Source of the DNA: Dehalococcoidia bacterium
GTDB taxonomy: Bacteria; Chloroflexota; Dehalococcoidia; Lucifugimonadales; UBA2985
Direction: 5' to 3'
DNA length: 64,000 bases
Assembly (NCBI GenBank): GCA_034422115.1
Contig: DAOUJW010000020.1
Location: forward strand, 41,352 to 105,351
Numbering within the stretch: position 1 is the first letter of the stretch; every line of letters begins with the position of its first letter. The position numbers were made by a program, and so were the translations under genes. Shown here one piece after another: positions 3,562 to 53,838 of this stretch. Below the pieces are notes generated by a model that was not told the DNA's origin, did no database searches, and worked only from the letters and a program-made list of their open reading frames with translations.

Positions 3562-3903
3562 ATGCGCTGGGTAATTAGGTCGAAGATACACAAGGCCACG
3601 GTCACCGAGGCCAACCTGGACTACGTGGGCAGCATCACCATCGACGAGGACCTGATTGACCTGACCGGCCTGTGGCCCGGGGAGAAGGTGTTGATAGCGG
3701 ACAACACCAACGGCGCAAGGCTGGAGACCTACGTGATTGTGGGCGATAGGGGTTCAGGCATCATCAGGATGAACGGGGCCTCCGCGCACCTTGTGAACGT
3801 TGGGGACGAGCTCATAATTATGGGCTATGAGCTGACGGACGTTCCCATTGAGGCGAAGAAGATCCTGGTGGACAAGCAGAACAGGTTTGTGCAGTACCTG
3901 TAG
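3562..3903 (+). CDS. panD: Aspartate 1-decarboxylase
   Basis: [22 protein letters not shown] with the G-S autocleavage site; NGARLETY; ATG at 3562 after GGAG. Confidence 0.95.
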
Positions 3904-3912
3904 TCGCTAACC

Positions 3913-4204
3913 ACTCCCGCGCAGGCGGGAGTCCACAATCCGCCCCCTGGATTCCTGCCTGCGGAGACCTTTGAACAATCCTAAATCCCTTCCCCAGCTT
4001 GCGGGGGAAGGTCAGGATGGGGGCAAAAAAGAGGCGTGTTCCCGCACGGCTCACCCCCATCTCAATCTTCCCCCTTCAAGGGGGAAGAGGTTTAGCTAAG
4101 GTCTCCCTGCGCATGAATGGTGCGGAAGCAGGGCCAGCCCCTGCGAGGGCATGTGTCTACTGCTGGAGTAATTGGGGTACTGGATTCCTGCCTGTGCAGG
4201 AATG
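3913..4204. repeat. REP cluster (ATTCCTGC..GCAGGAAT family) with a nested MITE
   Basis: Palindromes at 3913-3932, 3948-3962 (interrupted, resumes at 4111) and 4182-4204 between the convergent panD and pntB. Confidence 0.8.
3963..4106. mobile_element. 144-bp MITE with 9-bp TIR GGAGACCTT and 4-bp TSD CTGC
   Basis: GGAGACCTT (3963-3971) / AAGGTCTCC (4098-4106); CTGC at 3959-3962 and 4107-4110; removing the element restores a REP nearly identical to 34710-34735. Confidence 0.75.
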
Positions 4205-4220
4205 GGGGAAGGGGAGGGCC

Positions 4221-5968: not shown

Positions 5969-6109
5969 GAAACCTCTGAAGTACTGTCGTTCCTGCGAAA
6001 GCAGGAACCTCTACCATTTGCCTTTAGATTCCTGCTTCCGCAGGAATGACGGGAGGGAGAGTAGGAATGGCGGGTTCGCGGAAAGGCGTATAGGTCATTT
6101 AGAGGTTTC
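5969..6109. mobile_element. MITE-like element enclosing a REP doublet
   Basis: Ends GAAACCTCTGAA / TTTAGAGGTTTC (11/12 inverted); internal inverted REP pair 5986-6051; flanks GTTG/ATTG (imperfect). Confidence 0.6.
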
Positions 6110-8190: not shown

Positions 8191-9681
8191 CTACAGCCCC
8201 GTCAACTCCAGCGTGGTCACCTGCTCCGTCTCCAGGTCCAGGACGCGAATGGCGTGGTTGTTGGTGTCGGCTATGTACAGCCTGCCGCCGGCCGCAGAAA
8301 CACCGGAAGGCTCGTCAAAGCAGGCGTCTCCTGCCCAGCCGTCCCGGAACCCGACCTCGCCCTTGCCTGCAATGGCCTCGGCGCTCCGCTCCTCCGGCAC
8401 AACCCGCTTTATCTTGTGGTTGTAGGTGTCGGCCACGTACAGGAAGCCGTCAACCAGCGCTACGCCAATGGGGTGCTGCAGGCGCACGTCGTCTCCTACG
8501 CCGTCCACGTCTCCAAACTCGAACAGGTCACGGCCTACTATCGTGTCGAGGCGTGAATTCTCTCCCAACTGCATCGTCCTGACGGCGCTGGACTCGCTGT
8601 CGGCAAAATACAGCCTCTCGCCGTCGGTGGCGATGCCGCTGGGCTGAGCCAGCCAGACGTACTCAACCGGGCCGTCCAGCAGCCCCTCGCGGCCCGTCCC
8701 GAGGATTGGGTAGAGCTGCCCGCCAGCCAGGTCCATCTCCCAAAGCTGGTGGAAGCCGGCCATTGCGATGAACAGCAGCCCGTTGTTATAAACCAGGTCC
8801 CAGGGCGAGTTCAGCTCTATGCTCTTTCCCTCTCCGCCCATGTGTACCTCCCGCGCCTGCTGCCCGCTGCCGGCAATGGTCTCCACTGAGCCGCCCGCCA
8901 GGTCTATCCTGCGGATGGCGTGGTTGTCCGTGTCCGCAACGTAGAGCGTCTCGCCTGCGAGGGCCATCCCTTGGGGGTGGTGAAACTGCGCCGACGACAA
9001 ATCGCCGTCCTGGAGGCCTGGCTCACCGCTGCCTATGACTGCCAGCGCCTCGCCGTCAAGGGAGGCGACGATTATGCGGTTGTGGTTGGTGTCCGCGATG
9101 AACAGTCGGCCGGAAGCCTCGTCCGCCAGCGCCTTGCCGGGGAATGAAAGGGTGGTCCGGCCGCCGTCTTCTACGCCGTCCGAAAGATGAAGGGGAGCGC
9201 GGTCCAGCATACCGTTGTCGTCGAACTCCTTGATCATCTCCTGGAGCACGCCGTCCAGCCTCTCAAAGGATGCCTCTCCGGTGATGCCGCCGATGATTTT
9301 GCCCTGGGGGTCGATGAAGATTATGGTGGGCCACGCCCTCACGCGGTACTGCTGCCAGACTTGGGACTCGCTGTCGTTGACCACGGGGTGCCTGATTCCG
9401 TAGCGCCTGATGGCCTGGCGGATGCCGTCGGTGTTCCTCTCAGACGTGAACTTGCCGCTGTGCACGCCGATGACGGCCAGCTCTTCCGGGTACTTCTGCT
9501 CCAGCTTCCGCAACTGCGGAAGTACGTGCATGCAGCCAATTCAGCAGTATGTCCAGAAATCCAGCAGCACCACCTTGCCCAGAAGATCGCCCAGGCTGAC
9601 CGGCTCCCGGCTGTTGAGCCACTCCAACCCGGACGGGAAGTCAGGCGCATCGGCCGTTCCGACGTATGATCTGGGCTGCAT
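8191..9681 (-). CDS. Thioredoxin-like + NHL-repeat protein (NHLRC2-like), probable selenoprotein with TGA at 9541-9543
   Basis: Open frame from ATG 9681 (AAGGAG RBS): [59 protein letters not shown], continuing into the 8191-9531 ORF with NHL repeats (FHHPQG, LNSPWD, LAQPSG, LQHPIG, FDEPSG). Confidence 0.88.
9505..9522 (-). promoter_or_regulatory. Candidate bacterial SECIS hairpin
   Basis: mRNA CUUCCGC-AGUU-GCGGAAG; the loop starts 26 nt after the UGA and has G at loop position 2. Confidence 0.6.
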
Positions 9682-9766
9682 GACGCTTGCTCCTTACGCG
9701 GGTGTGCCGCGTGACCGTTTGGTGTCACTATAGCACAAAGGAATGCTTCCGCTCATAGCGGCCGTT

Positions 9767-9794
9767 GTAAGGGCGGTTCGCAAACCGCCCCTAC
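9767..9794. repeat. GTAG-type REP palindrome
   Basis: GTAAGGGCGGTTCGCAAACCGCCCCTAC; relatives at 23971-23998 and 34449-34473. Confidence 0.7.
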
Positions 9795-9810
9795 GGGGTT
9801 GAAACTCTGC

Positions 9811-10686
9811 CTAGTGAAATGTGCCGGACTCCATGTCCAGGAGGGAGGCCCGGCCGGCGGCTTTGCCCTTGGCGGTTGCAAGCCGCGCCCGGAGCCCCGT
9901 GTACGCAAGCACCAGCATGAACAGCGTCGCCGAGAACAGCACCACCGTCGCTCCGGATGACACGTCCACGTAGTAGCTCAGGTATATGCCGCCCGTCCCG
10001 CAGAAAGCGCCCACCCCCGCCGACAGCATCATCATTGTGCCAAAGCTGTTGGTCAACAGCCTGGCGACTATGGGCGGTATGACGATGGCCGCCGCTATCA
10101 TCGTCACTCCCAGCACCTGGATTGACACCACTATCGTGGCCGCCAGCACCAGCGCGAGCATGGAGTCCGCCCAGCCTGTTGGCACTCCGTAGTACCTGGC
10201 AACCTCCGGGTCAAAGGTGGTGAACAGGAAGAACTTGTAGCCCACCAGGACGATGAGAAGGGAGGCGGCCACGACTGCCACGATAGCGATGAGGTCGCCG
10301 TCGGTGACGCCCAGGATGTTGCCGAAGAGGGCGGCGTCGAAGCTGCGGGTGAAGCTCTTGTAACGGCTTATCAGGGCAATGCCCAGGGCGAAGCTGGCGG
10401 TGGTCACGATGCCGATGGCGGCGTCGGCGCCAATCTTGCGCTTGCTGGTGGTCAGGTTGATGAGCAGCGCCGACACCAGGCCCCAGACGCTGGCCCCGGC
10501 GTAGAAGTTGATGGACATGATGTAGCTGACCACGGCGCCGCCGAAGATGGCGTGGGCCAGCCCGTGGCCTATGTAGGACATCCGCCTGAGGACTACGTAC
10601 ACCCCGATGAAGCCGCACAGCCCGCCCACCAGAGCGGCGGAGATAAGCCCTCTCACAAAGAACTCGTACTGAAGTGGCTCAAGCAC
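9811..10686 (-). CDS. znuB: Zn/Mn ABC transporter permease
   Basis: GVYVVLRRMSYIGHGLAHAIFGG, LFGNIL, PPIVARLLT, SSGATVVL. Confidence 0.93.
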   Translation of the reverse strand: MLEPLQYEFFVRGLISAALVGGLCGFIGVYVVLRRMSYIGHGLAHAIFGGAVVSYIMSINFYAGASVWGLVSALLINLTTSKRKIGADAAIGIVTTASFALGIALISRYKSFTRSFDAALFGNILGVTDGDLIAIVAVVAASLLIVLVGYKFFLFTTFDPEVARYYGVPTGWADSMLALVLAATIVVSIQVLGVTMIAAAIVIPPIVARLLTNSFGTMMMLSAGVGAFCGTGGIYLSYYVDVSSGATVVLFSATLFMLVLAYTGLRARLATAKGKAAGRASLLDMESGTFH

Positions 10687-10761
10687 TCTTATTTCCTCTC
10701 CAGGCTACCTGGCGATATGCGTTGACACCTATTGCGCAATCTTGCCAACCCGACGCAATTA

Positions 10762-11126
10762 ACCTCGTCATTCCTGCGAAAGCAGGAATCTAGCTCATAC
10801 TATCTGGTCATACAGGTCTGACCATACGGGATTGCCGTTCTCTATTAGCTCAATCTTCCACGCCCGTTTCCACTTCTTGATGGCCTTTTCCCTGCTGATG
10901 GCCGCCTCTATAGTTACGTGAGTTTCATACCATACTAGCTTGTGTACTCGATAACGCTTGGTAAAGCCACCGATAAAGTCATTCTTGTGCTCCCAGACCC
11001 GTCGGATCAAGTCCGAGGTGACGCCGATGTACAGGGCGCCATTTGGCCTGCTTGCAAGAATATAAACGCAAGGGGCAGCCATGGTTGGAGGCCTTTAGAT
11101 TCCTGCGAAAGCAGGAATGACGAGGT
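10762..11126. mobile_element. REP-bounded GIY-YIG unit inside the znu operon
   Basis: 31-bp inverted REPs (10762-10792 and 11096-11126) enclosing the nuclease gene. Confidence 0.65.
10795..11082 (-). CDS. Stand-alone GIY-YIG nuclease (UPF0213/SLX1-like)
   Basis: CVYILAS...LYIGVTSDLIRRVWEHK...AISREKAIKKWKRAWKIELIE. Confidence 0.93.
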   Translation of the reverse strand: MAAPCVYILASRPNGALYIGVTSDLIRRVWEHKNDFIGGFTKRYRVHKLVWYETHVTIEAAISREKAIKKWKRAWKIELIENGNPVWSDLYDQIV

Positions 11127-11185
11127 GGGTAACGTGGCTTGGTTTTCTCTCATATTCCAACGTATTACTCAAGTCTGATCAACCT

Positions 11186-12031
11186 CTAATTCGACGCCTC
11201 TCTGCCGGCGGGGGTCCGGTGGCTGTCTCTGCCGAAGAAGTGCGGGGTCTCAGCGACCAGGGTTATCCCCTGGTACTGCGTGACGGGCATATCCGCGCCG
11301 TAGGTGTGGCTGAGTATCTCGCTGGTGAAGACCTCACTTGGAGGGCCGTCGGCCACAAGGCGGCCGTTCAGGCACACGACGCGGGGGAGGTGAGCGGCCA
11401 CAGAGTTTATCTCGTGGGTGCTCATTATCACTGTTATGTCCTCGTGGTTGAGCTCGTCCAGGAGGTGCATCACGTCGTCGCGGGTCTTGATGTCCACGCC
11501 GGTGGTCGGCTCATCCAGGAGCAGCAGGCGGGGGTTGCTGACCAGGGCGCGGGCCAGGAAGGTGCGCTGCTGCTCGCCGCCGGACAGCTCGCGGATGTGC
11601 CTGCGGGCCAGCTTGGATATGCCCAGGCGGTCCATGATGCGCGCCGCCCGCTCCCTGTCCCCACGGCGGTGCCAGGGGAAGATTGCGCCGTCCATAGTGC
11701 ACCCCATCATCACCACCTCCTGCACCGTCACCGGAAAGTTCCAGTCGATGGTCTCAAGCTGGGGCACGTACCCGGCCCGGGGCCTCCTGTGGGCCACCGA
11801 CTGCCCCTCAACAACCACGTCACCGTGATAGATGTCCACGGCGCCCAGGATGCTGCGAAGAAGGGTGCTCTTGCCGGAGCCGCTTGGCCCAAGCAGGCCG
11901 ACGAAGTCGCCGGGCATGATGCTCAGGCTGACCTCCCTGAGCACGTGCCTGCCCTCGTAGCCGGAGGTTACGTCTCTCAGCTCCACGATGGGAGGCTCAT
12001 GGCCGTATTCGTGCGGGACGGGATGAAGCAT
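11186..12031 (-). CDS. znuC: Zn/Mn ABC transporter ATP-binding protein
   Basis: GPSGSGKST, GYVPQ, LSGGEQQR, LLLLDEP. Confidence 0.94.
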   Translation of the reverse strand: MLHPVPHEYGHEPPIVELRDVTSGYEGRHVLREVSLSIMPGDFVGLLGPSGSGKSTLLRSILGAVDIYHGDVVVEGQSVAHRRPRAGYVPQLETIDWNFPVTVQEVVMMGCTMDGAIFPWHRRGDRERAARIMDRLGISKLARRHIRELSGGEQQRTFLARALVSNPRLLLLDEPTTGVDIKTRDDVMHLLDELNHEDITVIMSTHEINSVAAHLPRVVCLNGRLVADGPPSEVFTSEILSHTYGADMPVTQYQGITLVAETPHFFGRDSHRTPAGREASN

Positions 12032-12038
12032 GTTGCGC

Positions 12039-13061
12039 CTACTGCGGGTAGATGGCCCCGCTGTCTCCTTCGAATACCAGGCCGGGGTCGAATCCCTCCA
12101 GGGGTTCGATGCTGCCGCCCAGCGCGGTGACGATTATCTCTACGTCGGCCAGAATAAGTCCCAGGTAGGTGTGACGAGGATCGCCGGGCGCGCCGGGCAG
12201 GTCGTCGTCCCTCAGCTGGTCGACGAACTCGGCTCCGCCCTCCTTCGCTATCTGCGCCATGACGGGGCTGGGGAACACCTCCGAACCGAATATGGCAGGC
12301 ACCTGAGACTCGCGGATCTGTTCAATGAGCTGCGCCACATCCCTCGCCGATGGCTCAGTGAAGTCTGAGGGCTGGACTGCTCCGATGATCTCAAAGCCGT
12401 ACCTCGGCCCGAAGTATGGGAAGGAGTCGTGGTAGGTCAGCAGCTTGCGGTTCTGGGGCGGGATGGTGGCGACGGCCTCGATTATGCGCTCGTCCAGGTC
12501 GGTAATGCGCACTGTGAGGGCGGCCAGGTTGTCGTTGTAGTAGTCGGCGTTGTCCGGGTCGGCGGCCGCCAGCGCGTCCCGGATAAGCTCGGCGTATCTC
12601 AGCGCCAGGGGAGGAGATGTCCAGAGATGCGGGTTGGGGTGCCCGTCCGCCTCCGGGAATGAGAAGTCAAAGACCCACTCCTCGCGGCTGACCGCCTTGT
12701 CCCCCAGGGTGACGATAACCGCGCCGGCCTTCTTGTTGGCCCTGGCCATCTCAATGGAAGGCTCCTCCAGGAAGAGGCCGTTGGCGATGAACAGGTCTGC
12801 GTCCGACAGGATGGCCGCGACCGACGGCGAAGGCTCAAAGGTGTGGGAGTTGACGCCCTCCGGCACAATCCCCTCAAGGTCGATGCGCGTGCCTCCGATG
12901 TTCTCCACAAGGCTGGTGATGGGAGAAACCGTAGTGACCACTCTGATCTTTCCTCCGGCGTCCCGGGTCTCATCCTGTGTGCAGGCCACAGCCAGAAGTA
13001 GCAGCGCCGCGGCCAGCGCCATGACATATAGAGATGCTTTGTTGACTATTTGGGTACGCAT
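12039..13061 (-). CDS. znuA: Metal ABC transporter substrate-binding lipoprotein (ZnuA/TroA family)
   Basis: Lipobox LAVAC; NSHTFEP, NPHLW, TYHDSFPY. Confidence 0.92.
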   Translation of the reverse strand: MRTQIVNKASLYVMALAAALLLLAVACTQDETRDAGGKIRVVTTVSPITSLVENIGGTRIDLEGIVPEGVNSHTFEPSPSVAAILSDADLFIANGLFLEEPSIEMARANKKAGAVIVTLGDKAVSREEWVFDFSFPEADGHPNPHLWTSPPLALRYAELIRDALAAADPDNADYYNDNLAALTVRITDLDERIIEAVATIPPQNRKLLTYHDSFPYFGPRYGFEIIGAVQPSDFTEPSARDVAQLIEQIRESQVPAIFGSEVFPSPVMAQIAKEGGAEFVDQLRDDDLPGAPGDPRHTYLGLILADVEIIVTALGGSIEPLEGFDPGLVFEGDSGAIYPQ

Positions 13062-13635: not shown

Positions 13636-13926
13636 ATGAAACTTCCCGACCGGCTTACAGTTGGCGGAGTCAAGGCGGTGGACCTAATTGCTATCGGTGG
13701 TGTCAACTCAATTGGCGTCGTGGCTATTGGCGGGGTCAACTCGATAGGTGTGATCGCCATTGGCGGAGCAAGCGCTACTGGCCTAATCGCTATTGGCGGC
13801 GCGAACGCAATGGGCCTCATTGCCTTCGGCGGCGCGTTTGCCCGCGGGATAATCTCCCACACGTTGCGGGAGCGGCGGAAACTCAGGAGTGGTCTGAACA
13901 AATCTAACGTCATTCCCGAGAAGTAA
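13636..13926 (+). CDS. Small Gly-rich 11-aa-repeat hydrophobic protein
   Basis: About 5 repeats like IAIGGVNSIGV; TTGCCA-17-TACATT-6nt-ATG leaderless promoter supports the start at 13636. Confidence 0.75.
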   Translation: MKLPDRLTVGGVKAVDLIAIGGVNSIGVVAIGGVNSIGVIAIGGASATGLIAIGGANAMGLIAFGGAFARGIISHTLRERRKLRSGLNKSNVIPEK

Positions 13927-14026
13927 GGAGTTTGCGCCCCGTTCCCTGGATTCCGGCGAAAGCCGGAATGACGGTGAGGGTGTCCTTGAACTAGAAGGTC
14001 GTGTTTGCTACTTGTTCAGAGGATTC
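13887..14026. mobile_element. MITE-like element (relative of 21209-21322, inverted)
   Basis: 13997-14026 is the reverse complement of 21209-21238 at 28/30; left end GAGTGGTCTGAACA; internal REP pair 13907-13972. Confidence 0.65.
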
Positions 14027-18460: not shown

Positions 18461-18608
18461 CGTCATTCCGGCGGAAGCCGGAATCCAGAGGATTTCATCA
18501 GAAACACAGCGCATTTATAGACAGGGACTTTGGATTCCTCACTGCGCTGCGCTCCGTTCGGAATGACAGTGGGCGCGCGCCGTCGTCATTCCGGCGGAAG
18601 CCGGAGTC
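18461..18608. repeat. Three CGTC-tagged REPs
   Basis: CGTCATTCCGGCGGAAGCCGGAATCC (18461), a longer inverted variant (18531-18567), and a third copy at 18584. Confidence 0.8.
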
Positions 18609-18626
18609 TGTATCGGAGGCCGGGCA

Positions 18627-21208: not shown

Positions 21209-21322
21209 GAAACCTCTGAACAAGTAGCAAACATGACCATTCCTGCGTAGGCAGGAATCCAGGAGGGACGGGGCGTGGACTCCCGCCTTCGCGGGAGTGG
21301 ATTGGACCTGTTCAGACCTTTC
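21209..21322. mobile_element. 114-bp MITE with IS5-like ends and TTAG target duplication
   Basis: TTAG|GAAACCTCTGAACA ... TGTTCAGACCTTTC|TTAG; contains an inverted REP pair (21237-21298). Confidence 0.75.
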
Positions 21323-23789: not shown

Positions 23790-23970
23790 ACTATCACCTC
23801 TCAGCAGCTTATCTTTGGAACCCGCGCCTTATTTTACCCTACTGGAGAGATTACGCAAATCCGCCCCGATGATAGTAGCTCAAATTCACCTTGCACTCCT
23901 GCGAAAGCAGGAATCTGAACGACTCTCAATGGCGCAGTTGTTCAGATCGTTGCTAGAGATGACAACAACT

Positions 23971-29603: not shown

Positions 29604-29729
29604 GATCAACCCTTCCTCTGCCATTCCTGCGCAGGCAGGAATCCAGGGGGCGTGGGAAGGCCCCTCGCCTTGACACCCCTATACAAAGATGGCAACATTG
29701 GGGCGCTTTTCAAGGAGTCCATTAGCTCA

Positions 29730-34643: not shown

Positions 34644-34950
34644 ACCCCGTCATACCCGTGCAGCCTGCCCCGCACTTGATGAGGGGACGGGCTCCACGCT
34701 GCCCCACCCCTGGATTCCTGCCTGCGCAGGAATGGTCTTAGGGCAAGTTGGTCAGTCGCGTTGAAACCACCCCTACTATGGCAGTGGTCTACCTCTTCGT
34801 TCCGCTCACCCTGAGCTTGTCGAAGGGTATGAGCGGAACGACCAAATTGGCCCCGCTCATATGGTTCGACAAGCTCACCATGAGCGGGAAGGGGCTGTAC
34901 GTCCCCATGCCTCAGTTCCAAGAGGAATGGCCCAATCCAACTACTTTGTC

Positions 34951-40268: not shown

Positions 40269-40573
40269 GGTGTCCTCACCGTTTAAGCGCCTTCTCCGTC
40301 ATTCCTGCGGAAGCAGGAATCTAGAGATCCTTGTGGAGGCCGTACGGGATCGATGGAAGCGCGAGAGCTTCGGCCCCGCTCATCCTGAGCTTGTCGAAGG
40401 AAATGAGCGGGGGTGAATTTGCTCATGGTCTTCCCGCTCATATGGTTCGACAGGCTCACCATGAGCGGGAAAGCGGCGGCCAATCCTGTGTCCTCTAGTT
40501 TCATGGTTATGACAAGAGTATAGAGCTACTTGGCTGGTTATGTAAGAGCCTCCTTGCAGAATGCGACGTGTGG

Positions 40574-47062: not shown

Positions 47063-47416
47063 TCTACGTAGGAGCAGAAACGGACGCCCCGCCCCTGGAT
47101 GCCTGCCTACGCAGGCATGGTCAGGATGCTCGTCGCTCATGGGCCCTGACCATTCCTGCGAAACCTGCCCCGCACTTGATGCGGGGTCAGGAATCCAGGG
47201 ACGCCGACAAAAACACAGCGATGTGGGTATTTTCGGGGCGTGTTGGTATTACCAACGCTGGTCGTAATACCACACCTTTCCCGCTCATGGTGAGCTTGTC
47301 GAACCAGAGCGGGAAGTTGGCGGGCGTAGTATCACCCGCTCACCCTTCGACATGCTCAGGATGAGCGGGTGTGTCCGCTAACGCTAGCACGCACCTGAAA
47401 ACCCCGATTCCCCCTG

Positions 47417-51510: not shown

Positions 51511-51577
51511 CGTCATTCCTGCGGAAGCAGGAATCTGAAAGTGTGGGGCAGAGGTTCCTGCTTTCGCAGGAACGACG
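51511..51577. repeat. CGTC-tagged REP doublet
   Basis: CGTCATTCCTGCGGAAGCAGGAATCT ... GAGGTTCCTGCTTTCGCAGGAACGACG; an inverse-orientation relative of 5986-6051. Confidence 0.85.
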
Positions 51578-52900: not shown

Positions 52901-53838
52901 AGCGGGACGGTCAATACACCAGTTCTCGCTTTTAAGTACGCAGCAGTGCTGAGCGAGATACCTGCGCTCCGATGCCATTACCGCCAAAACAAACGGTTTT
53001 AAGTGGAAGCAATAGGCAACCGGCATTCCCGTGAAAACTGGAATCTAGGGGGCAGAGTGTGGACTCCCGCCTACGCGGGAGTGACGGAAAGCCGTGTATT
53101 TTTATCTCCTTACGTGACCCTAGCAAGGCCATAGTGATTCGGTGATGACTAAGATGGCCGCAAGCAGCCTGCCTCCAGATTACACCGAGGTCGGCAGATG
53201 GAGCCTGACGCAGGCGTCGGTCAAGGAACGCTTGCTCGCGGGTGTGGCTATGCTAATCCTCTTCTTCATCTCGCTCGCGACCGTCAGCCTCATTGGGTCT
53301 GTCGTTACGGGTTCGGACCGGATAACGATGGAAGGGAGTACCCTTATCACTGGTTCGCTTATAGGGGTTGTGGTTGGAGTCACGCTCCACGAGTTGGTCC
53401 ATGGCGCTGTTTTCCTCGCGTTCCATGCCCGTCCCCGCTTTGGATTCAAGCCTTGGACGCGGTTTGGACCGGTTTTCTTTGCCACATCCCCCGGAAACTA
53501 CCTTCCGAGAACGCAGTACCTCGCTGTTGCCTTGTCAACGGCCTTGCTGCTAACGGCCGCATTGGCGGCGGCCATTGCAACTGCATTCGCTCTTGATTTG
53601 CAAGGAGGCTTACTCTCATCCGTCCTGCTGTGGGCTTTCTTGCTGAACGCGGTTGGCTCGGCGGGCGATCTATTCATCGCGTCAAAGGTCATGGGATATC
53701 CAGGCGCGACGTACTTTGAAGATACCAGTGAAGGCTTCGTTGCCTACGGCCCGGCGAGTGTAGACAGATCGAGGCAGTAGTTGGGCCGTACCGCAGAGCG
53801 CCAGGTCGTTCCAGTCAAGCCTCAAGGGGCTGGGGTAG
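52837..53838 (+). repeat. About 65-bp direct repeat of the M16 gene 3' end (52837-52900 and 53773-53838)
   Basis: Both copies end CAGCCTCAAGGGGCTGGGGTAG / AAGCCTCAAGGGGCTGGGGTAG and align over about 65 bp with a few substitutions and a 2-bp indel. Confidence 0.85.
53142..53780 (+). CDS. DUF3267-like membrane zincin
   Basis: HELVH motif, NAVGSAGD, several TMs; the exact start is uncertain. Confidence 0.82.
   Translation: MMTKMAASSLPPDYTEVGRWSLTQASVKERLLAGVAMLILFFISLATVSLIGSVVTGSDRITMEGSTLITGSLIGVVVGVTLHELVHGAVFLAFHARPRFGFKPWTRFGPVFFATSPGNYLPRTQYLAVALSTALLLTAALAAAIATAFALDLQGGLLSSVLLWAFLLNAVGSAGDLFIASKVMGYPGATYFEDTSEGFVAYGPASVDRSRQ

Follow-up and report, generated by a model that had tools for sequence, protein, structure and literature searches.

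The window, by which we mean the whole 64,000-nucleotide stretch of DNA analysed here, belongs to a contig of a Dehalococcoidia bacterium (DAOUJW010000020.1) and carries a small GIY-YIG nuclease gene, enclosed by two inverted hairpins, within a znuA-znuC-znuB metal-transporter operon. The gene (10795..11082, minus strand; called ssn below, after the family to which we assign its product) encodes a single-domain protein of 95 aa, recognized by its open reading frame (ORF), its Pfam match, its residues and its predicted fold. It is on the same strand as znuA (12039..13061), the znuC-like ABC ATPase gene upstream of the insertion (11186..12031; Pfam PF00005) and the znuB-like ABC-3 permease gene downstream of it (9811..10686; Pfam PF00950, E=6.8e-63). 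The first hairpin, ACCT-CGTC-ATTCCTGC-GAAA-GCAGGAAT-CTA (10762..10792, plus strand), is found 2 nt past the ssn stop codon with its CGTC tag pointing away from the gene, and the second, which reads ACCT-CGTC-ATTCCTGC-TTTC-GCAGGAAT-CTA on the minus strand (11096..11126), is located 13 nt ahead of the start codon. Outside the hairpins there are, again on the minus strand, a 59-nt leader that extends from the znuC stop codon to the upstream hairpin (11127..11185) and a segment of 75 nt that separates the downstream hairpin from the znuB start codon (10687..10761). In total, 499 nt separate znuC from znuB. A scan of 10600-11300 detected no promoter or terminator of the cassette's own and no terminator-like T-tract.

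The two arms measure 31 nt each and are 303 nt apart, with the tags facing outward on both sides. An earlier note on this DNA had described a 95-aa GIY-YIG gene sitting tightly between them, which is correct, and had taken them for exact mirrors, which they are not, since their complementarity is 87% (27/31). In both arms the 20-nt stem-loop core, ATTCCTGCGAAAGCAGGAAT, reads the same on the plus strand, as a direct repeat, and therefore the arm upstream of the gene, when read in the CGTC orientation, has a flipped TTTC loop. Both fold as stable hairpins of single-stranded DNA (ssDNA), at about -7.8 kcal/mol and with z about -3.8 to -3.9. The string cgtc-ATTCCTGC-gaaa-GCAGGAAT-cta has the tag, the 8-bp stem with A-T first, the 4-nt loop and the short tail of the CGTC-1 repetitive extragenic palindromes (REPs), a class that is defined by a CGTC or TGTC tag, an 8-bp stem beginning with A-T, a 4-nt loop and a CCA-like tail and that includes the dRS3 repeats of Neisseria (Di Nocera et al., 2013; PMC3733652).

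The product of the ORF matched the GIY-YIG domain of Pfam (PF01541, E=1.3e-14, residues 4-77) and no second domain, i.e., it is a near-bare catalytic domain. Alignments with 40-42 homologs contained 18-24 invariant positions; no variation was seen at Y7, Y18, G20, R28, H32 and N84 of the window protein, and conservation of E65 was 90% or more. The AlphaFold (AF2) model (predicted local distance difference test score, pLDDT, 89.5) is one compact GIY-YIG fold, and in the Protein Data Bank (PDB) it matched only GIY-YIG folds, best of all 1ZG2, Slx1 and the N-terminal domain of UvrC. The closest solved fold is 1ZG2 (Foldseek E=1.7e-3, probability 1.00), at an identity of only 26%, and no solved Ssn structure was among the PDB entries searched, which had release dates up to April 2026. 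A sequence search of the PDB with the window protein returned matches to WD40 proteins only, which we judged spurious. NCBIfam, PADLOC and PHROGs provided no usable family match (the NCBIfam group I intron endonuclease model scored 18.8 bits vs a cut-off of 56), and none of the defence-system models of PADLOC matched the protein.

Close relatives of the window protein number in the thousands, at 60-86% identity, and come from very distant phyla, their hosts being Dehalococcoidia, Proteobacteria, NC10, Planctomycetes, Cyanobacteria, Nitrospira, candidate-phylum bacteria and Rickettsiales. In Betaproteobacteria and Rickettsiales there are hairpin-flanked homologs with 60-70% identity to it. We have surveyed 80 homolog loci from species-representative genomes with flanks of +/-3 kb, of which 76 had both flanks available. 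Outward-facing hairpins were present on both sides of the gene in 41/76, on one side in 29/76 and on neither in 6/76, so that 70/76 had at least one. The earlier note had named as grounds for refutation a lack of hairpin enrichment at the homologs over the intergenic background, and this is clearly not what was found. Hairpin density was 6.45 per kb at 200 bp or less from the gene vs 0.30 per kb in the remainder of the +/-3 kb, an approximately 22-fold enrichment. The stem varies from host to host (ATTCCCGC, ATTCCGGC, ATACCGGC, ATTCTGGC and others), is identical on both sides in half of the flanked pairs (22/44), and in 32% of cases coincides with that of another hairpin at its own locus, vs 7% when the loci were permuted (maximum 15%, 500 permutations). 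The geometry is also conserved, with the tail of the downstream hairpin starting exactly 2 nt past the stop codon in 15 loci. Two homologs, P0115 and P0118, have C-terminal extensions (e.g., ...SGFRRNDG...) that are a read-through of the downstream hairpin and are likely to be annotation artefacts or the result of a recent loss of the stop codon.

This combination of features has been described for the Ssn family of nucleases (Chenal et al., 2025, Nat Commun 16:2388; PMC11893778). SsnA of Neisseria meningitidis is a 94-aa single-domain GIY-YIG protein (CDD cd10448), and its gene is flanked by NTS hairpins that fit CGTCATTCCCGCGMAVGCGGGAATCYRG (PMC11893778); these hairpins, also called Ssn-related motifs (SRMs), are the same repeats as the dRS3 of Neisseria and the "CGTC REPs" (PMC11893778, PMC3733652). 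When purified, the homologs of N. meningitidis, N. elongata, N. wadsworthii and Wolbachia bound the hairpin as ssDNA and cut just 5' of its CGTC tag, at a distance given as about 3 nt; SsnA binds the hairpin as ssDNA only, leaves double-stranded DNA (dsDNA), RNA and the reverse strand uncut, and needs Y6, Y17 and E64 for cutting (PMC11893778). In the same study, 71% of the Ssn homologs had at least one motif nearby and 42% had motifs on both sides (PMC11893778). The residues Y7, Y18 and E65 of the window protein are the equivalents of the catalytic Y6, Y17 and E64 of SsnA, and in homologs of 94 aa such as P0017 the numbering is exactly Y6, Y17 and E64.

We consider it very probable that the window ORF encodes an SsnA-like ssDNA endonuclease of the Ssn family and that its two arms, together with the other hairpins of the window (ca. 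20 in all), are the cognate SRMs. The size and single-domain architecture of the protein (94-95 aa), the catalytic Tyr/Tyr/Glu, the framing of the gene by inverted CGTC-tagged hairpins with an AT-first 8-bp stem, a 4-nt loop and a C tail, and the many intergenic copies of the hairpin are all the same as in the published system. The differences are that the host here is Dehalococcoidia-like (Chloroflexota), a group unmentioned in the main text of PMC11893778, that the cassette is inside a metal-transporter operon, and that the stem ATTCCTGC and the tail CTA are outside the published search string. The pairing of a GIY-YIG nuclease and CGTC hairpins in one system, which the earlier note had proposed, is supported by the binding and cutting reported for homologs (PMC11893778), while the mobilisation of the repeats by the enzyme, which it had also proposed, remains unproven. 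Its idea of a REPtron-like system with a non-RAYT enzyme (RAYTs being the REP-associated transposases) is a correct independent rediscovery of the system published in 2025 (PMC11893778), and the locus is a further member of the Ssn family and no new kind of system.

Three points weigh against this identification. The first is that both flanking hairpins fail the published SRM string, HGTCWYN(0-2)YYVSBRHN(0-5)WNVSBRGN(0-2)RNCYNB, at one position, a T at stem position 6 of ATTCCTGC where the string has V; in the entire window the string matches one site only, 53059-53086. It has to be kept in mind that the string is a hand-made search tool and not a biological definition. Since the stem variant ATTCCTGC escapes it, the published motif counts are probably underestimates, and the motif can be widened accordingly. 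The second is the atypical upstream arm, as the loop starts with G (GAAA, GAAG or GCAG in the CGTC orientation) in 98% of the 195 strict hairpins of the homolog loci, and the TTTC loop upstream of the window ssn is a rare flipped case. Gene conversion across the 20-nt direct core common to both arms is a possible cause. This conserved loop polarity stands beside published biochemistry in which the identity of the loop is dispensable for cutting (PMC11893778). The third is that the control of transformation described in Neisseria may not apply to this host.

By analogy with the characterized homologs, the protein would act when DNA becomes single-stranded, at a replication fork or during entry by transformation or conjugation, and the 8-bp stem could extrude. 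It would then recognise the stem along with the CGTC tag on its 5' side and the C tail on its 3' side and hydrolyse that strand some 3 nt 5' of the tag; dsDNA, RNA and the complementary strand would be left uncut. The predicted substrate is single-stranded DNA with ACCTCGTCATTCCTGCGAAAGCAGGAATCTA; activity on the ATTCCTGC stem variant is expected by the same analogy, and whatever it does for the Dehalococcoidia-like host is likewise inferred. As the arms reach 4 nt (ACCT) outside CGTC, the predicted nick on each strand would fall 1 nt or less from the arm ends, a position that is suggestive of a role in movement but no proof of it.

The hairpins of the ssn locus are part of a much larger family. 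The core 20-mer with up to three mismatches was found 15 times in the 64-kb window vs 0.01 expected, and a looser stem pattern recovered 19 hairpins, to which a twentieth at 3951 has to be added that is split by a MITE (a miniature inverted-repeat transposable element). This amounts to about 0.3 hairpins per kb, and 18/20 are intergenic, while ca. 87% of the window codes. Strict CGTC-1 copies numbered eleven vs 0.65 in simulated sequence. The window contains three or more stem types, among them ATTCCTGC, ATTCCGGC and ACTCCCGC. Most of the approximately 14 recurrence sites of the palindrome listed in the earlier note were recovered within a few bases, except that the one at 13907 is only a half-hairpin and that a variant whose tag is degenerate occupies the site at 47093. 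Its remark that the inverted doublets resemble the ssn unit minus the gene also holds, as four doublets share the outward polarity of the hairpins around ssn (5985-6051, 51511-51577, 21239/21279 and 53025/53063).

The doublet at 5985..6051 has no gene and a 13-nt spacer between the tails; that at 51511..51577 was found, like the mixed doublet at 21235..21302 (stem ATTCCTGC plus stem ACTCCCGC), by the stem pattern search. In the other mixed doublet, at 53021..53086, the ACTCCCGC member is the sole match to the SRM string mentioned above. We have considered whether the doublets at 5985-6051 and 51511 could be deletion derivatives of the ssn cassette and have dropped the idea, because beyond the hairpins the former has only ca. 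8 nt in common with it (GCCTTTAG) and the latter nothing. Three hairpins, with stems from 3913, 3951 and 4184, form a cluster at 3909..4206, the middle one being that split in its loop by the MITE. The pattern searches also located a single hairpin with stem ATTCCGGC at 13947..13973 (minus strand), whose half-hairpin partner is at 13907, and two like-oriented hairpins with the same stem at 18461-18487 and 18584-18610 (18461..18610, plus strand). The single hairpin at 40297..40323 (plus strand) differs from the gene-flanking one solely in its loop, GGAA. Single hairpins with degenerate tags were recovered by the core and stem pattern searches at 23891..23917 (plus), 29619..29645 (plus; tag tgcc) and 34711..34737 (minus), and inspection of the site at 47089..47120 (minus) showed the variant with stem ATGCCTGC and a degenerate tag. 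Doublets with mixed stems are frequent, with ATTCCTGC paired with ACTCCCGC at 3913/3951, 21239/21279 and 53025/53063. In a close relative (locus L088, 3290-3590), an Ssn paralog 72% identical to the window protein (P0048) is followed by four tandem mixed doublets of ACTCCCGA with ATGCCCGT. There are hints here of several enzyme-hairpin specificities per genome and of arrays similar to bacterial interspersed mosaic elements (BIMEs).

The junction between znuC and znuB could be compared in several relatives, and the comparison agrees with the statement of the earlier note that it is interrupted in the window. In a relative with a 99% identical ZnuB (L082) the site is empty, with only 12 nt between the two genes, and in two contigs with 87% identical ZnuB (L084, L085) the spacing is 4 nt. 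In another relative (L083, 3357-4000; ZnuB 95% identical) the spacer measures 644 nt and lacks ssn; it is filled with no fewer than four hairpins, a variant of them with a longer loop (cgtcATTCTGAGCcgaaggcGAAGAATcc) and a MITE. The empty junction in a relative with 99% identical ZnuB implies that the cassette is a recent arrival, and the series of empty, repeat-only and ssn-filled states at one junction shows that both the cassette and the repeats come and go within short evolutionary times. Insertions have landed repeatedly at this junction, which is a hotspot for repeats. The closest Ssn genes (83-86% identical) are found at unrelated loci, namely leuC/leuD (L081, L087) and between two CoA-transferase genes (L086), and the genome with the empty znu site has at least two Ssn paralogs elsewhere. 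In the window, the leader-hairpin-ssn-hairpin cassette, which runs in operon-sense orientation, is a recent insertion into the operon.

The boundaries of the inserted DNA are less simple. Compared with the empty site, approximately 487 nt have been added, which is more than the 365-nt unit that the arms delimit; both the 59-nt leader and the 75-nt segment beyond the arms are missing from the empty site. In agreement with what the earlier note had seen, the comparison revealed no target-site duplication (TSD). Alignment with the L086 copy extends upstream through the hairpin and for about 59 nt more, as far as the point where the gene ahead has its stop codon (L086 1713-1800). The leader, being absent from the empty site and conserved in this copy, is therefore part of the transferred unit. 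Downstream, the homology among close copies ends a few nt past the tag (GACGAGGTTAA), and the 75-nt segment next to znuB had no match that could indicate its source in the window or in the 88 loci compared. Of the five closest ssn copies, four have a broken upstream hairpin but intact genes. In other words, two marks of an insertion sequence (IS), terminal inverted repeats that coincide with the ends of the inserted DNA and a TSD, are not found here, and these boundary data (no duplication, a unit larger than the arms and a leader conserved outside the arm) argue against simple cut-and-paste.

There are two explanations to be weighed for the association of the enzyme with its hairpins; they are not mutually exclusive and the present data do not separate them. 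One would be that they form a REPtron-like selfish element, in which Ssn is the missing mobilising enzyme of the CGTC REPs and its nicks at the hairpins trigger the copying or movement of the cassette and of the gene-less doublets. This is compatible with the assignment to the Ssn family, and we see it as a serious possibility that nevertheless falls short of an even chance. Since hydrolysis is all that GIY-YIG enzymes carry out, movement of any kind would need host repair or replication, for example homing-like gap repair or template switching between hairpins, and not a strand transfer of the transposase type. GIY-YIG nucleases are not known to have a covalent intermediate or a strand-transfer or joining step, which is a point against mobility. 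The distribution speaks for it, with the cassette here, the empty junction at 99% and the ssn-less hairpin cluster at 95% ZnuB identity, the closest genes at unrelated loci and the paralogs in one relative genome, as do the outward polarity that the doublets share with the cassette, the covariation of the flanking stems with other same-locus hairpins and the arm ends within 1 nt of the published cut position. In addition, the CGTC REPs are seemingly without a dedicated transposase (Di Nocera et al., 2013; PMC3733652). Chenal et al. themselves remarked in their Discussion that NTS-ssnA-NTS resembles an IS and compared it with IS200/IS605 and with the REP-associated transposases (PMC11893778). 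However, the two nicks predicted here are on opposite strands, unlike in IS200/IS605, the insertion has no TSD and exceeds the unit between the arms, and most of the closest copies keep an intact gene behind a broken upstream hairpin. Besides, the sole phenotype published in vivo is a lowered transformation and not repeat mobility (PMC11893778), and the presence or absence of the cassette is equally explicable by homologous recombination with the DNA of a relative.

The other alternative, favoured by Chenal et al., is a domesticated host function, in which Ssn is a restriction-like ssDNA enzyme and the hairpins are kept as address tags. The enzyme would trim incoming or exposed ssDNA at the hairpins and in this way tune recombination and horizontal transfer near hairpin-flanked genes. 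The best evidence is experimental, as deletion of ssnA in N. meningitidis raises transformation about 5-fold, for hairpin-bearing DNA only, and mutation of the hairpin abolishes the effect (PMC11893778). The very high conservation across phyla (60-86% identity, with the 18-24 invariant positions) also implies purifying selection on the enzyme. Nevertheless, a gene that is patchy, non-syntenic, multi-copy and inserted within operons looks more like a mobile one, and the lack of a match to the PADLOC defence models does not help either, so that for this host we hold the explanation only tentatively. A third proposal, that an unrelated GIY-YIG gene came to lie by chance between two abundant intergenic hairpins with terminator or stabiliser functions, could invoke how common and how consistently intergenic the window hairpins are, but it is already refuted by the approximately 22-fold local enrichment around homologs of many phyla, the fixed polarity and the recurrent 2-nt spacing after the stop codon. 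The biochemical specificity of homologs (PMC11893778) and the missing T-tract also count against it, and we give it practically no credence.

Returning to the Ssn nuclease and its cognate hairpins, a stronger claim would be that together they make up a functional mobile system, equivalent to REPIN-RAYT but with a GIY-YIG enzyme, that spreads the cassette and the doublets through nick-induced host repair. In our opinion this is rather unlikely. If it were true, it would answer the question, posed in 2013, of what mobilises the CGTC REPs, and this lineage would be a natural test case, with empty, repeat-only and ssn-filled states at one junction among relatives whose ZnuB proteins are 95-99% identical. 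As an instance of the Ssn family, which comprises the first site-specific nucleases for single-stranded DNA and the best candidate partner of the widespread CGTC/dRS3 repeats, the locus adds little that is new in principle, and its value is that of a comparative test bed for the question of mobility.

The comparison with other known systems helps to place the cassette. REP/REPIN-RAYT systems (REPtrons) are reportedly those described by Nunvar in 2010, Bertels and Rainey in 2011 and Ton-Hoang in 2012. They have in common with the window a small gene between inverted copies of the dominant hairpin of the genome, gene-less doublets scattered through intergenic regions and an enzyme that reads the hairpin in ssDNA and cuts beside an unpaired tag (for Ssn, as judged from the homologs). 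They differ in the chemistry, since Ssn is a hydrolytic GIY-YIG enzyme and not an HUH/Y1 one, with neither a 5'-phosphotyrosine intermediate nor a rejoining step, in the tag, which is CGTC and not GTAG, and in copy number, several Ssn paralogs per genome being possible where RAYTs are typically single-copy. With GIY-YIG as its only Pfam domain and CGTC as its tag, the window system is outside the REP-RAYT class. The resemblance to the CGTC-1 REPs is much closer and includes the tag, the 8-bp stem, the 4-nt loop, the short tail, the frequent inverted dimers and the intergenic location, although the 2013 survey encountered these REPs mostly in Alphaproteobacteria and named no enzyme associated with them, and the tail here is often CTA and not CCA (PMC3733652).

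GIY-YIG homing endonucleases such as I-TevI also have this catalytic domain, in a mobile gene that spreads via host repair. They carry extra DNA-binding domains, cut dsDNA at one long site and are found in introns or in intergenic regions of phages, whereas Ssn consists of the catalytic domain with nothing added and has as its targets single-stranded hairpins, of which there are hundreds of copies; the window protein, with its single domain and no PHROG match, is not one of them. The UPF0213 proteins (B. halodurans BH0048, i.e., PDB 1ZG2, and E. coli YhbQ) are similar in fold, size and single-domain composition, but the identity to 1ZG2 is the low one already mentioned and at the sequence level there was no PDB match. 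They presumably belong to a different CDD subfamily from Ssn, and to our knowledge no hairpin flanks have been reported for them.

As to the genomic context, the neighbourhood of the cassette is kept in relatives (window 8191-13061, L082) and consists, in this order, of a Fur-family regulator, znuA, znuC, znuB, a 46-aa ORF and a 446-aa thioredoxin-like/NHL-repeat protein. Embedded as it is in what looks like a Zur-type operon, ssn may have its expression follow metal limitation. A viral origin was also considered and rejected, as among 2.9 million viral contigs there were only two weak homologs, with a different hairpin variant. In these two IMG/VR contigs (L089 and L090, +/-60 nt around 2001-2258) the flanking variant has a 9-bp stem and a 5-nt loop (tgtcATTGCCCGGcttgaCCGGGCAACcca), and the two hairpins on either side of the gene point in one direction, with no inversion.

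Finally, the hairpins themselves receive insertions. The MITE that splits the middle hairpin of the cluster described above is 144 bp long (3963-4106) and is bordered by a 4-bp duplication, CTGC, the layout at 3947-4122 being ATTCCTGC-CTGC-[GGAGACCTTTG...CTAAGGTCTCC]-CTGC-GCATGAAT. It is a derivative of an IS5-like element, and both are inserted exactly in the 4-nt hairpin loop, which is duplicated. A full copy of this IS (1188 bp), encoding a 322-aa DDE_Tnp_1/DUF772 transposase, occupies the GAAA loop of the hairpin that lies upstream of ssn in L086 (1795-2982), and the same IS end is found beside a half-hairpin upstream of ssn in L081, L087 and L001. The MITE of the L083 junction is located at about 3700-3930. 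These insertions in hairpin loops indicate that a second mobile element targets the loop of the hairpins.

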